From Carcharhinus longimanus (Eukaryota): 64,000 nucleotides of DNA. Every line of letters begins with the position of its first letter. Position 1 is the stretch's first letter. The translations under genes were made by a program, and so were the position numbers. The notes beneath the pieces are model-generated. The model had not been told where the DNA came from. It did no database searches and saw only the letters and a list, made by a program, of their open reading frames with translations. The stretch lies in the NCBI GenBank assembly GCA_030264375.1, contig JASCQW010000112.1, forward strand, positions 78,001,446 to 78,065,445. Reading direction: 5' to 3'. Below, piece after piece: positions 13,595 to 30,600 of the stretch.

Positions 13595-14639
13595 AGGTCT
13601 TCCATTTGATGAATCCAGCCGCTTCTGTAGTCCCAGTCTAACGTTTTCAGGGAAGGCAGCGAGTTGGCTTCACTTGGCCTGTCGAAGAAAATACCCCCGC
13701 CCCGAGTAAAGCAGGGGCAGCATTTGATAAAAACGCCAACATTTAATAAGACATTGCAACAGAAAACAAGAAAACTCGCATTCAGGCCTGGAAATAAATA
13801 GAAGGCCAAATGTTTGAACAATAATAGGTTCGTTCCGTTATTCCTATAAACATCTTAATCAATTAATAGTTAATCTTTAAGAAATGGAACAAAGGAGTTA
13901 TATGAAGAAGTCAGACTGTACAACGCGTTTACACAACATTTACACTGATCTATCCTTCAATGTTTGGTTCCGCTTTTCCAACGCTCATTAGTTTTGAGAA
14001 ACATTAAAAATTAGATTTATAAAAGCAGCATTTTATTGTTTGTGAACCGATGTAAAGTCACAATCGACCGACAGCCGGTTTTCCACATGCTCCATCCGCC
14101 ATCATGTATCCAAAATGACTGACAGGAAAGGATCAGGGAGGGAGTGATCGGGATTTGGGTGGAATGAAGGGGACCTTCCCCAGGGCAGCGGGACGGAGCA
14201 GCCCAATGCTCCCCAGCTCCCCTTCCCCAATCCTCTACTCTCCCTGACTGACTCCCCCAGAGCCCTCAGCCTCCCACAGCAGCCCCCCCCCCCCCACCCC
14301 AGCCCCGGCTCCTAGCCCGCAGGTCCTGGCCGAGTGCTCTCATAATGAGGCAGCAGCACATCCCTGCCTCCTCAGGCCCATTCCATCACAGTGCAGGAGG
14401 AGCAAGGCTGGGAATGGGGAGGGGGGACTGGGAAGGGAATACAAATGCAATGAATCATCAATACTCAGCCCTCCGCTGCAGCACTGTGGCTTCATGTGTA
14501 AACTGGGATTGCACCCTCGCACAGAGAGAGACAGGGAGAAGGAGGCAGAAAATAGTCCGGAGCCGCTTCCTGCTCTCTGAGCCCCCTCTCAGCCCAGCCT
14601 GAGCTAACTTGCAGCAGACACTGACCTTCCCGCAATGCC

Positions 14640-14880
14640 ATTCTCCGGGCCCGCGGCTCTGCGCGGTGGCAGCACAGGGACTGGGGGCTGGAGGAGGCGG
14701 TGATTGGGTCCCTCCCGCCTTGCCAGTGTAACCCTCCGCCCAGCCTGGCTGCTGATTGGCTGAGGGCCGGGCCGGCTCTCGGCAGGCTCTGATTGGCCGC
14801 TGTTTGGGGGCTTGCAGCGAGTGTTGGGGGCGAGCGGGCCAGGGGCCGGTTGAATTGCAGCAAGCTGGCTCGGCGCGACG
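14640..14880 (+). promoter_or_regulatory. foxg1 proximal promoter (CpG/GC-rich, three inverted CCAAT boxes, GC box)
   Basis: TGATTGG with ATTGG at 14703-14707, 14755-14759 and 14792-14796; CCGCCC at 14736-14741; dense CpG immediately upstream of the CDS. TSS not directly visible; probably near 14850. Confidence 0.7.
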
Positions 14881-14893
14881 TGTTTTTAAGAAG

Positions 14894-14902
14894 ATGAAGT
14901 AG
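14894..14902 (+). other. Minimal upstream ORF (ATG AAG TAG, Met-Lys-stop)
   Basis: aagATGAAGTAG with A at -3. It is a uORF only if the TSS lies upstream of 14894. Confidence 0.45.
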
Positions 14903-14921
14903 TGGCGCTTTTTTTTACTAC

Positions 14922-15002
14922 ATGAGTTGCCAGCGTTTGCGATTGCGGTCCAACTGTGCTGCTGCAATTTTACCTGTGTGTGATGTTGGACATGGGAGAT
15001 AA
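14922..15002 (+). other. Overlapping out-of-frame upstream ORF, 26 aa ([26 protein letters not shown])
   Basis: ATG at 14922 is open to TAA at 15000-15002 and overlaps the foxg1 ATGs at 14983 and 14992 in a different frame. Translation is not demonstrated. Confidence 0.6.
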
Positions 15003-16215
15003 GAAAGAAGTGAAAATGATTCCGAAATCATCCTTCAGCATAAACAGCCTGGTGCCCGAAGCGGTTCAAAGTGACAACCGACACCGCTCTGCCCCCGAAC
15101 AGGAGGAGAAAAGCCTCTTGCCAACACTGGAGTCCAAGTCTGAAAATACTCTAGGCAAAAGTGACAGCAGCTCAGCGGAGCCGCCCTGCTCCGAGGAGAA
15201 GGAGAAGCAGGAAGAGAAAAAGAGCGAGGGGGGGAAGGAAGGAGACTCCGGCAAGGAGGGAGAGAAGAAAAATGGCAAATACGAGAAGCCCCCGTTCAGT
15301 TATAACGCTCTGATTATGATGGCCATCCGACAAAGTCCCGAGAAGCGGCTCACTCTCAATGGCATCTATGAGTTCATCATGAAGAACTTCCCTTATTACC
15401 GGGAGAACAAGCAAGGCTGGCAAAACTCCATCCGCCACAACCTCAGCCTCAACAAATGCTTTGTCAAAGTTCCCAGACATTACGATGACCCGGGGAAGGG
15501 CAATTACTGGATGTTGGACCCATCCAGTGACGATGTCTTTATAGGCGGCACCACCGGCAAACTGCGCAGGAGATCCACCACTTCGAGGGCAAAGTTAGCC
15601 TTCAAGCGGGGAGCCCGCCTCACCTCCACCGGACTGACTTTCATGGACAGGGCGGGTTCCTTATATTGGCCCGTGTCCCCATTCCTGTCCCTGCACCATC
15701 CCAGAGCCAGCAGTACTTTAAGTTATAATGGAACCACCTCACCTTACCCCAGCCATCCGATGTCCTACAGCTCGGTGCTAACTCAGAACTCTCTGGCGAA
15801 CAACCACTCATTTCCAACATCAAACGGCTTAAGTGTAGACAGACTGGTTAACGGAGAAATTCCTTATGCCACCCACCACCTAACGGCCGCGGCCGCCTTG
15901 GCCGCCTCGGTGCCCTGCGGCTTGTCCGTGCCCTGTTCTGGCACATATTCGTTAAATCCCTGCTCGGTGAACCTCTTGGCAGGACAGACAAGTTACTTTT
16001 TCCCCCACGTTCCTCACCCTTCAATGACTTCTCAAAGCAGTACTTCGATGGCGGCCAGAACAGCGTCCTCCTCGTCGCCACAGGCTCCTTCAACTCTCCC
16101 CTGTGAGTCTCTAAGACCTTCTTTGCCAAGTTTCTCCACAGGACTTTCTGCAGGGCTATCTGATTACTTCACACATCAAAACCAGGGGCCCTCGTCAAAC
16201 CCTCTAATACACTAA
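14983..16215 (+). CDS. foxg1: Forkhead box protein G1 (brain factor 1), single coding exon, 410 aa
   Basis: Starts [29 protein letters not shown] (eh1 motif FSINSLV at 15034-15054). Forkhead domain [79 protein letters not shown] at 15286-15522, then [23 protein letters not shown] and C-terminus ...[19 protein letters not shown], all typical of vertebrate FOXG1. The ORF-track GTG start at 14956 is upstream of the true ATG. Confidence 0.98.
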
Positions 16216-16498: not shown

Positions 16499-16506
16499 CA
16501 GTATTA
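16499..16506 (+). promoter_or_regulatory. miR-200b/c/429 8mer seed match in foxg1 3' UTR
   Basis: CAGTATTA; Foxg1 is an established miR-200-family target in other vertebrates. Confidence 0.65.
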
Positions 16507-17040: not shown

Positions 17041-17046
17041 AATAAA
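17041..17046 (+). terminator. Polyadenylation signal of foxg1
   Basis: AATAAA ~830 nt after the stop, followed by a T-rich downstream element (CTTGTCCTTTTCTTT). Confidence 0.65.
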
Positions 17047-26604: not shown

Positions 26605-27610
26605 AGTGTGTGTGAATCTATCTTCTGTGTGTGTATTTACCCCATGTATGCATGTATATGCCCTGTGTGTATCTGCTCCAGGTGTGTTTCTGTATATTTG
26701 CTCTGTGTGTGAGGGCATACCTGCCCCTATGTGCGTATAACTATTCCTGCATGTATTCCTGCCTCTGCATGTTTACAGGTCCGTATCTGCCCCTGTGTGT
26801 GTATCTATCCATATGTGTGTGTCTGTCACTGTGTGTATATGTGTACACCTGTCTGTTTTTATGTGAGTGTGTCCAGTCTAGTATGTGTAGATACTCATGC
26901 GTGTGTATCTGCCCCTCTCTGTGTCTGTCTGCCCCTGTTCCTGTGTGTGTGTGCATGTATGTGTATCTGTCCCTGTGTGGGTGTGTTCTGTCTCTTTGTG
27001 TATGCATTTGTGTGTGTGTCCCTGTATGTGTGTGTTTGTGTGTCTGCCCCCGTGGGTGTGTGTGCATGTATCTGCCCCTGTATATATTTGTGTGTGTCTG
27101 TACCTGTATCTGTGTATCTGTGCCTATGTGTCTGTGTATATCTGCCCCCGTGTGTGTTTGTGTGTGTGTATCTGCCTCTGTGAGCATATGTCTATCCCTG
27201 TGTGTGTGTCTGTCCCTGTGTTTACCTGTATATCTGCTCCTATGTGTGTATGTGTGCCTGTCCCTCTGTGTGTGTTTGTCCCTGGGTGTGTTTGTGTGTT
27301 TATACTTACCTGTATGTGTGTGCATCTGTCCCGGTATGTGTATATTTGCCTTCTCGGTATATATCTGTTCTTGCGTATATCTGCCCATGTGTGTGTGCAG
27401 CTGTGTGTGTATATGTGTGTGTGTGTGCGCGTGTGTATGCCCATCCCTGTGTGTGTGTGTATTTGCCTGTCCCAATGTTTGTGGACTATGTGTGGGTGTG
27501 TAAATGTGTCCCTGGGTGTGTGTGTATGTATCTGTCGCTGTATGTGTATATTTGCCCTCTGTGTGTATATCTGCCCCTGTGTGTGTATATGTCCCTATGT
27601 GTGTGTATGT
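26605..27610. repeat. ~1 kb degenerate GT-rich minisatellite (recurring ATCTGCCCCTGTGTGTGT-like unit)
   Basis: Repeated TATCTG(C/T)CCCTGTGTGT cores separated by (GT)n/(AT)n; explains the long Cys/Val- and His/Thr-rich ORFs here. Confidence 0.9.
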
Positions 27611-30600
27611 TGATATCGTGTGAGTCACTGCAACCTGTCGACTCGACGCTCGGTTTGGACAGCGCTGTTTGAAAGTCCGGATTTTTGCTTTCTTCTGACT
27701 AGCCGACCCAATAGGTTGAGCTAATGCAGAGGGCGTCGTGTGAATGAAGTAGAAAACACTCGACAGGTCGTGAATAATCGTTTTAATGAGTGTGTAAAGC
27801 ATGCGACGGGGTGCAGAGAGCTGTCGGGTTAAACAAACAACTTGTACCCTGATGTAATCCGATTGTTAAAGTGCAAAGTGGTGTCATTCCAGTTTTCCGT
27901 TCCGTTGGTTAAAACCACAGCTCTAACACGCGGGAGTCCAATTGTCCCAATTAAAAAAAATAACAANNNNNNNNNNNNNNNNNNNNNNNNNNNNNNNNNN
28001 NNNNNNNNNNNNNNNNNNNNNNNNNNNNNNNNNNNNNNNNNNNNNNNNNNNNNNNNNNNNNNNNNNAAAAAAAATAACAATATTTTCTTAACTTGAGTGT
28101 GATCTTGTTTAATGTTAGTCTGGTTTAGTCAAGCATCAAGTCAGACAAAAAGGTGATTTGTGATCGCGCTACGGTTCTTTAATCAAAGTCCAAGTTAATA
28201 CATCATGTATTTACAATCCGCAGACGGCAAGAAATTAATACTTCGCTGAAAATAATTCGTATATATGTTTTAGCAAAAAAACAGTGAATGAGGATGATAC
28301 AGTTCAGGTGTTCCAGTGTCGAGGAAGTGCTTTGATTACAGGATTTGATGATTTAGACAGAGTACACAGTGAGTTGCATTTTCACGCGTACTCTGATTAC
28401 AAAAACGGGACTAATAGATGCCACACACAAATCGGTTAAAACATCTTCCAATGTCACACAATCACGAGTTCCCAAAATGCTGGCCCACGTGTGAAACCAT
28501 CTCAGATTTAGGAAGATTGTGTTCACGTGTACAGTTCCAAGTGTACACCGTGAAGCAGATCATTGCACTTTTCATACAATGGGTTCGAAATAAAGACTTA
28601 GTTTCAATTAATTAGGGCGATGTAGTATCCAAACACAAGAAAGCGAGCGGCGCACCGAAGCAAATGCCTTTGCACGGGTTTCTCACATCTTGTGTTGATT
28701 GTAACAATGATTTGGAACCGATTGGGTCACTTCCAGACATGAGTTGCAGAGAAACAGGCCTCCCGTTCCGACATCCTTGGAACGACAATTTGGGAAAAAT
28801 GCGTCCTGTGTGGAGAAAAGCGAAGTATTTCTAAATAATGTCACAACCTGCTGGCAACTTAGTGTTAAGATAGATAATTGTCTTACCAATACTGACAGCT
28901 AACATTACTACCTGACGGGGTTGGAAGAGAATTTTAGTTTAAAGCCTCAATATTAAAATATCAAGACTATTGATTACTCAACAATATTCTTCCTGTGGCA
29001 GTCTGCACGCGTGTATGTTCTTGCATCTCCATTAATTGCTATTAATTATTTTTATTTTGACATACATAATTCAAAAATAATACAAATATAATATTGCCTC
29101 GTAAACAGTTCAGGCAGAGTTACAGTAATTATACGGTGGAATAGGAAATTGAAGATATGCAGGATATAGACAATAAGTGTTGTACAATTGGTCTGTCCCC
29201 TGTTTCCCAAAGAAGATCCGAGTAAAGTAAAATAATTGTAAGTGTTGATATTCCGGAATTGTTTTAGTTCATGCAGCAACATTACAGGGAATTGTTGTGT
29301 ACCTACAGGAGCCAAATAACCCTAATAATCTGTAAAATAAACCCCCAAATTGCTTTTTATTCTAGCTGTTTGTTTTCTCTGCTTTGCTGTGTAAGTAAAA
29401 TGCACTAACATATGTTTACGTCAATACAGCTGCGCTATAAGAAACGTTTGTCTTGCTGCAGTGAAAACAGGCTACAGAAACACAAACATTTCCAACGTCA
29501 GACGCAGGCGGTGACAATTCTTAACACGTCAACAGTAACCCGCCAGTTTCGGAGGCAAGGGGGATCTGCCAGAGTTTGCTATCACTTATCCATTTGTCCA
29601 AACGTTGTGTAATTTAAAAGTCGATATCCAACGTAATGTTTAGAATTTGGTTCACGCGTGCTTGCAGCATTGGGGCAGGCGGGTGCTCAGATCACGGCAG
29701 CACTGATATACTTCTCAAATTACTATCAAAACTCCCTTTACGACCAAATCAATTCATTACTTACAATTTAATCATTTGCAAATAACGCCCCATTAAGTGC
29801 AACTTTAAGAATTTCACTTTCTTGTCGGTGGATTTATGTATTATTTATATATATATATATAAAAGTATTGAATCACATGTCAGCCTGTTACAAGGGAAGG
29901 AAGGTTGCCTTGGCTTGTTTGCGATGGTCTCCAGTCTGCAGTCAGCCACCCTGGAGACGGGAGGCGGCAGCCGAGATCCGCCGCCAGTTTGAACATAACA
30001 TTGGTTCGCTTCCTCCGGTACTCGGAGTAAACGGATCCAGGGGACCCGGGTTTAAGATAATATCATTCGAAGGCGTTGCCCCTAAATCAGAACGATACTG
30101 AATTCCTCAGCGACTCTCCCCTCCAGCATCACTAAAGCTGGGGGGNNNNNNNNNNNNNNNNNNNNNNNNNNNNNNNNNNNNNNNNNNNNNNNNNNNNNNN
30201 NNNNNNNNNNNNNNNNNNNNNNNNNNNNNNNNNNNNNNNNNNNNNCCATGCCCCCCCCCTCCCCCCCTGGTACTCACACAGGTGCTCAAAGGACAAGGGG
30301 CTCTCGCTTGTCGAGTAACTCCCCAACGATAGAACCGACTGTCCCACCAGGTGTCATAGAAACCGAGTGTAGGCAGCCAGAAATATTGCGCCGAGGAAGA
30401 AGGGTGAATGTGATGAATGAAATCCCGGTCACAGTCCACAGAGACAATCCCTGGCATAAAGTGCTCTTTTGTACAATAAAAACACAGCTCGGCGCCGGAG
30501 CGGCCTGTACTCGGTAAATAGCAAGTTCTCTGCCGGGCTTGGAATTGCTATTGTTAAACACGCTAATGCCACAGTGTGTAATGCAAAGGCGAAAGGGCAA

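Follow-up and report, generated by a model that had tools for sequence, protein, structure and literature searches.

The 5' leader of foxg1 in the shark Carcharhinus longimanus carries two upstream open reading frames, a minimal uORF1 and an out-of-frame uORF2 that runs over the first two FoxG1 start codons. We somewhat favor the reading that this pair acts as an old, always-on brake, which would set the share of ribosomes that initiate at FoxG1. The analysis covered a window of 64,000 nt on contig JASCQW010000112.1, which is the whole stretch of DNA considered here, and the features around the foxg1 start are as follows.

14703..14796, minus strand: three inverted CCAAT boxes (ATTGG at 14703, 14755 and 14792), from a motif scan
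14816..14826, plus strand: possible transcription start region, where contigs of the runs X1, X9 and X18 have their 5' ends, contigs being unable to map a start
14894..14902, plus strand: uORF1, Met-Lys-stop, with A at -3, read directly from the sequence
14908..15080, plus strand: zone of nucleotide-level conservation comprising uORF2 and FoxG1 codons 1-32, from comparison with X1 and X9
14909..14916, plus strand: eight consecutive T within the 19 nt that separate uORF1 from uORF2, from the sequence
14922..15002, plus strand: uORF2, 26 codons, out of frame and extending over Met1 and Met4, from the sequence
14983..16215, plus strand: foxg1 coding sequence, a single open frame of 410 aa, identified by its forkhead domain and homologues
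14983..14985, plus strand: FoxG1 Met1, with G at -3 and T at +4, a moderate context
14992..14994, plus strand: FoxG1 Met4, with G at -3 and G at +4, a strong context
15016..15018, plus strand: FoxG1 Met12, with A at -3, upstream of the presumed eh1-like motif at codons 18-24

The main frame contains a forkhead domain (PF00250, E 3.6e-40), and its closest relatives are all FoxG1, with best matches of 91-97% to cartilaginous-fish FoxG1 and 408 of 410 residues identical to the Mustelus asterias FoxG1 model. The foxg1 locus is single-copy, and two more distant FoxG paralogs, L003 (G000:C99) and L004 (G000:C180), are located on other contigs. Codons 18-24 encode what we take to be an eh1-like motif. 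The 3' UTR has a poly(A) signal at 17041 and single miRNA-seed matches among the positions 16499, 16660, 16679 and 16741, which presumably belong to miR-200b/c, miR-9, miR-33 and miR-34. The observed/expected ratio of CpG is 0.55-0.91 in positions 1-32000 of the window versus 0.13-0.46 in 32001-64000, and a broad unmethylated domain with a sharp edge near 32 kb likely surrounds foxg1. Long ORFs on both strands at 26652-27802 were rejected as genes, being a CA/TG-rich simple repeat.

uORF2 lies in another frame than FoxG1 and ends within the coding sequence, which makes it an overlapping uORF. It starts in a weak context (T at -3, A at +4), runs across both the 14983 and the 14992 ATG, and terminates with the TAA at 15000-15002, 13 nt ahead of the ATG at 15016. 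The uORF1 stop is followed by the uORF2 ATG after 19 nt and by Met1, Met4, and Met12 after 80, 89, and 113 nt, respectively. All coordinates in the first-pass annotation, which had described uORF1, the 19-nt gap, the 26-aa uORF2, its overlap with Met1 and Met4, and the 13 nt to Met12, were correct, and the sequence also agrees with the A at -3 of uORF1 and the weak uORF2 context that it had stated. A TGA at 14923-14925 overlaps the uORF2 ATG and shuts the FoxG1 frame 19 codons 5' of Met1; thus, a longer in-frame extension of FoxG1 is barred.

The two-uORF layout by itself is not beyond chance. When leaders of the same composition (157-167 nt) were shuffled by two methods with 5000 shuffles per row, 40-50% contained an overlapping uORF, and in 8-16% a short uORF preceded an overlapping one. 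The case depends on conservation and not on layout, and the conservation of the uORFs, judged by sequence comparison, does exceed chance.

Expression of the leader was examined with four probable-RNA runs of three related organisms, whose RNA nature is guessed and none of which comes from C. longimanus, aligned over 14400-15300. The uORF2 start was inside contigs of all four runs and uORF1 inside those of three. X1, X9, and X18 reach 35, 29, and 5 letters past their aligned starts at 14851, 14851, and 14831, respectively, and the resulting contig ends at about 14816-14826 sit just downstream of the three inverted CCAAT boxes, which likely mark the proximal promoter. The contig ends and the CCAAT boxes together fit a start site at about 14816-14826, and a leader counted from there has exactly two ATGs, those of uORF1 and uORF2. 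No splice joint was found in the leader in these four runs over 14400-15300. Among runs registered as RNA, none was listed for the species or contained the stretch, which counts neither for nor against transcription of the leader.

In X1 and X9, for which all listed differences are visible, both upstream ATGs, both uORF stops, and the poor start context of uORF2 are unchanged from the window. Their leaders differ from it by four substitutions, at 14875, 14893, 14907, and 14965, with one additional T in X9; the T run in the spacer is one T longer in both X9 and X18. The substitution at 14965 changes Ala15 of uORF2 to Val and is the sole uORF2 change visible in all four runs, so that one non-synonymous and no synonymous change was seen. 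It is also the single substitution of X1 and X9 in the zone 14908..15080, whereas X1 has 26 in 15079-15270. Seen from the main frame, FoxG1 codons 1-32 show no change in X1 and the following 192 bases show 26. In codons 8-32, which lie past the uORF2 stop, X1 has no synonymous change against 4.6 expected from the rate in codons 33-79 (9 changes at 29.7 sites), and X18 has at least three among the 24 that were displayed of its 35 listed differences. Because silent sites are frozen beyond the uORF2 stop, the constraint on this region acts on nucleotides, at least in part, and close relatives therefore cannot distinguish selection on the uORFs from selection on nucleotides.

This pattern is the main ground for supposing that the upstream ATGs are passengers in an element conserved at the nucleotide level, such as a core promoter or downstream element, an RNA protein-binding site, or a splice signal, and that they are translated little or without consequence. 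We regard this explanation as possible but unlikely. It would account for the frozen silent sites in codons 8-32 of X1 and for the absence of synonymous change in uORF2 next to the one amino-acid change over the four runs, and it agrees with the layout being common by chance and with the percomorph models described below, in which the block 3' of the uORF2 start seems to persist without the ATG. However, what is conserved over the longest range is translation signals: the ATG and TAG of uORF1 are kept around a variable middle codon, and the ATG and register of uORF2 are kept while the mammalian leader gained 126 nt. No stable RNA fold was found over uORF2 (z 0.01 overall; local z -0.8 to +1.9), which ruled out RNA structure as the reason for conservation of the uORF2 region, and the leader matched no Rfam family and had no splice joint in the four runs. 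The only notable fold score came from 14820-14899 (z -2.1), and the one sub-threshold Rfam match was located elsewhere.

The leaders of mammals and teleosts were inferred not from DNA but from a few protein models that extend into the leader, faulty gene models among them. Of 300 proteins fetched, 247 had a complete FoxG1 N-terminus, and 22 of these had an N-terminal extension; the 53 excluded proteins were partial models, other N-termini, and unrelated cluster members. The macaque model P0066 (UniRef A0A2K5X839) begins 58 residues before Met1 at a uORF2-like Met. Its N-terminus and that of the independent P0121, an ORF from an ENA contig that likewise starts at this Met, have 12 of 15 residues identical to shark uORF2, including an unbroken run of eight, and the pairwise E value between uORF2 and the mammal-type peptide is 2e-05. 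P0066 and P0121 have 26 of their first 27 residues in common. P0121 is a 97-aa ORF that diverges after residue 27, as would be expected if the contig were chimeric or if splicing led out of the leader there. P0066 was the only match among 1343 candidates, a set of cluster representatives only that missed the goat model.

In the goat model P0296, the conserved block is read in frame with FoxG1, just as in the shark sequence, with 55 codons from the block to Met1 versus 13 in shark, a difference of 126 bases. A single DNA sequence accommodates both the macaque and the goat frame with no mismatch, while 200 shuffles gave a minimum of 4 and a mean of 11.5. This joint fit, together with the register in goat, indicates at the level of inferred sequence that shark and mammals have in common the uORF2 ATG and also its out-of-frame register, across the 126 inserted bases; the register had a 1-in-3 chance of being kept through one indel history. 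After residue 27, P0066 leaves the uORF frame and continues in the main frame of goat. For this reason, and because it was the single match among the 1343 candidates, we rejected its in-frame fusion as a real N-terminal extension of FoxG1; a one-base frameshift is probable, and the fusion is probably an annotation or assembly error. A mammalian counterpart of uORF2 had been proposed in the first-pass annotation; its start and first 15 codons are borne out by P0066 and P0121, and its register by goat P0296. None of the mammal models showed uORF1.

The similarity between the shark and mammalian peptides (12 of 15 residues, with the unbroken run of eight) could also suggest that the product of uORF2 is a peptide with a function of its own, or one that stalls ribosomes as a nascent chain, and that its first 15 residues are important. 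In the run of eight, the second frame differs at one position (Val in shark, Ala in goat), and this change is silent in the uORF frame, as selection on a peptide would have it, but a single silent event is not a signal. Against such a peptide, the sole change of uORF2 among close relatives is non-synonymous, 42 low-complexity codons are inserted after residue 15 in mammals (the goat uORF would have about 68 codons), and neither the length nor the stop is conserved, the stop position being lost in 158 of 247 models. Searches for a family or relative of the product were also negative: Pfam gave no match for uORF2, a HMMER search of 1.84 billion representatives returned one match, a repeat protein without a single passing stretch and hence due to chance, and the best score in the Protein Atlas was 0.77, a blank. 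We thus consider a functional peptide improbable. The micropeptide envisaged earlier finds no visible peptide-level selection in these comparisons, with no synonymous and one non-synonymous change among close relatives and one silent change relative to goat.

Among percomorphs, poeciliid and flatfish models hold a block matching the shark main-frame reading over uORF1, and two percomorph models, P0112 and the Logan model P0293, read this block in different frames. Their joint DNA solution requires Met-Lys-stop for one of the two and Met-Glu-stop for the second, and the best solution has 1 mismatch, which 1 of 500 shuffles equalled; uORF1 looks conserved to percomorphs on this reconstruction. 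A uORF2 ATG was impossible about 29 nt before the conserved block in all five percomorph models tested, a test that assumes unspliced models and in which all but one of the models are closely related or of common ancestry. On this basis, the uORF2 start looks lost in percomorphs. The frog model P0273, in which part of the block stands in a different register, is uninterpretable.

The end of uORF2 is variable as well. At FoxG1 residues 6-7, 158 of the 247 models have Glu-Arg, 73 have Asp-Arg, and 16 have Asp-Lys, and because a Glu codon at residue 6 cannot supply the stop, the uORF2 stop is impossible at the shark codon in the 158, where the frame could still end at the codon before or after it. 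Residue 6 is Glu in skates, most amphibians, and most ray-finned fish, and Asp in sharks, other rays, chimaera, coelacanth, Xenopus, and amniotes. Without its stop, the shark uORF2 frame would reach 15074 and the overlap would be kept. In the inferred leaders, conservation is patchy, with both uORFs in sharks, at least uORF2 in mammals, and uORF1 only in percomorphs. The idea that uORF2 was kept in all jawed vertebrates is not supported, since its start is absent from the percomorphs tested and its stop position is lost with Glu6. A metagenome scan for vertebrate foxg1 DNA gave 594 pattern matches, none of which was confirmed.

In the standing brake that we favor, ribosomes initiating at uORF2 would pass Met1 and Met4 in the other frame and be lost to FoxG1, while the poor context of uORF2 would make it leaky, so that many ribosomes would scan past it. 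Strict start-codon selection would then raise FoxG1 output and loose selection would lower it, as for eIF5 mRNA. Ribosomes that have translated uORF1 would mostly be unready after 19 nt and skip uORF2, then restart at Met1 or Met4, 80-89 nt downstream. That the short gap could let re-initiating ribosomes skip uORF2 had already been suggested, and this part of the suggestion fits the 19-nt spacing. A toy scanning model with assumed rates and three assumed uORF2 start strengths was used for the stress response. At all three strengths, slower re-loading lowered FoxG1 output or left it nearly flat; the largest rise, from 0.18 to 0.22, occurred only at very fast re-loading, and the Met12 share rose modestly with slower re-loading. 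In the model, uORF1 was beneficial only with a strong uORF2 start and otherwise cost output. Stress acting through eIF2-alpha would accordingly be predicted to give slightly lower output with a small shift to Met12, the opposite of ATF4.

The same order of parts, a short uORF in good context followed by an overlapping out-of-frame uORF, had led to an analogy with ATF4, in which eIF2-alpha phosphorylation would raise FoxG1 through delayed re-initiation and skipping of uORF2. The gap between the two uORFs of ATF4 is about 87 nt, and 19 nt is too short for unstressed ribosomes to re-load before uORF2, so that skipping is predicted with or without stress and the analogy fails at this point. In addition, the toy-model output falls or is near flat as re-loading slows, and percomorphs are without the second uORF start. 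Such a switch at foxg1 is, in our estimation, quite improbable.

Met12 offers a further way in which the uORF could act, because termination at 15002 might feed re-initiation there and yield a shorter FoxG1 isoform. With A at -3, Met12 sits 5' of the presumed eh1-like motif, and it is invariant, like Met4, in all 247 FoxG1 models with a complete N-terminus. However, re-initiation is poor 13 nt after a uORF of such length (26 codons, or about 68 in goat), and skates, most amphibians, and most ray-finned fish do not have the stop at that codon. The paralog L003 also has Met1, Met4, and Met12, together with two upstream inverted CCAAT boxes and a 31-codon non-overlapping uORF at -145, while the readable part of its leader is without an overlapping uORF; the leader of L004 is mostly N. 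We consider the isoform very improbable, and poor spacing and a non-conserved stop position speak against the earlier proposal of Met12 isoforms made 13 nt past the stop. The ATF4-type switch, the micropeptide, and re-initiation at Met12 are all ranked as less likely than the standing brake.

FOXG1 is dose-sensitive in both directions, with loss and duplication each causing disease (PMC7052011, PMC8780739, in their available text), and its upstream control is described as less well understood in the available part of one review (PMC7052011). The available parts of these two reviews mention no FOXG1 uORF. Our search, which had the main Ribo-seq ORF catalogues outside its scope, found no published description of one, and those catalogues may list the human uORF. 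FOXG1 was absent from the supplements of PMC11057154 (3 files), PMC10032668 (6), PMC7889888 (11), and PMC4568590 (9 of 16 files searched), as well as from the main text of bioRxiv 2021.10.22.465170 and PMC13577902. The class of mechanism is already known, and the deeply but patchily conserved foxg1 leader is a new instance of it.

If a repressive uORF has been kept from shark to mammal, it would be a concrete site in which to seek non-coding variants, and a possible target where the aim is to obtain more FOXG1 from the healthy allele. A bolder version, which we put forward only as a speculation and think rather unlikely, is that FOXG1 dosage in jawed vertebrates has since the shark-mammal split been set by a translated, stringency-sensing overlapping uORF, with the N-terminal peptide adding repression. 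Should the stringency-sensing uORF be real, it would be an overlooked control point of human FOXG1; some unexplained cases of FOXG1 syndrome could then be due to variants in the uORF, and blocking it could increase protein made from the intact allele. The mosaic of leaders, with both uORFs in sharks, uORF2 in mammals, and uORF1 in percomorphs, supplies natural variants for tests.

Among known systems, ATF4 and ATF5 also have a short first uORF and a second one that overlaps the main start out of frame. They differ from foxg1 in the distance between the two (about 87 nt versus 19), in that the second uORF of foxg1 is weak, and in that the predicted stress response of foxg1 is flat or negative. 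Animal uORFs with conserved peptides (PMC7530721) likewise show peptide similarity across distant animals; unlike them, foxg1 uORF2 is conserved at its N-terminus with an unfixed end, and peptide-level selection on it is hypothetical. In human genes, an overlapping ORF is present in 15.0% of 5' UTRs and a uORF in 34.4%, and the leaders of dose-sensitive genes have more uORFs and more conserved ones (PMC11057154, available text). foxg1 resembles these dose-sensitive genes in having an out-of-frame overlapping ORF in a haploinsufficient developmental gene, whereas its depth of conservation, which reaches from shark to mammal, would greatly exceed what is typical of such genes. eIF5 mRNA is likewise comparable: its output is sensitive to start-codon stringency via conserved uORFs in poor context, and it shares with foxg1 a deeply conserved upstream AUG, which in the window and in X1 and X9 also has a poor context and which in foxg1 is predicted to be inhibitory and to make output depend on stringency (PMC3326321, available text). 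The eIF5 loop is autoregulatory and experimentally shown, whereas foxg1 is known here from sequence alone; foxg1 also differs from eIF5 in encoding a developmental transcription factor and in having a short uORF in good context precede the poor one.
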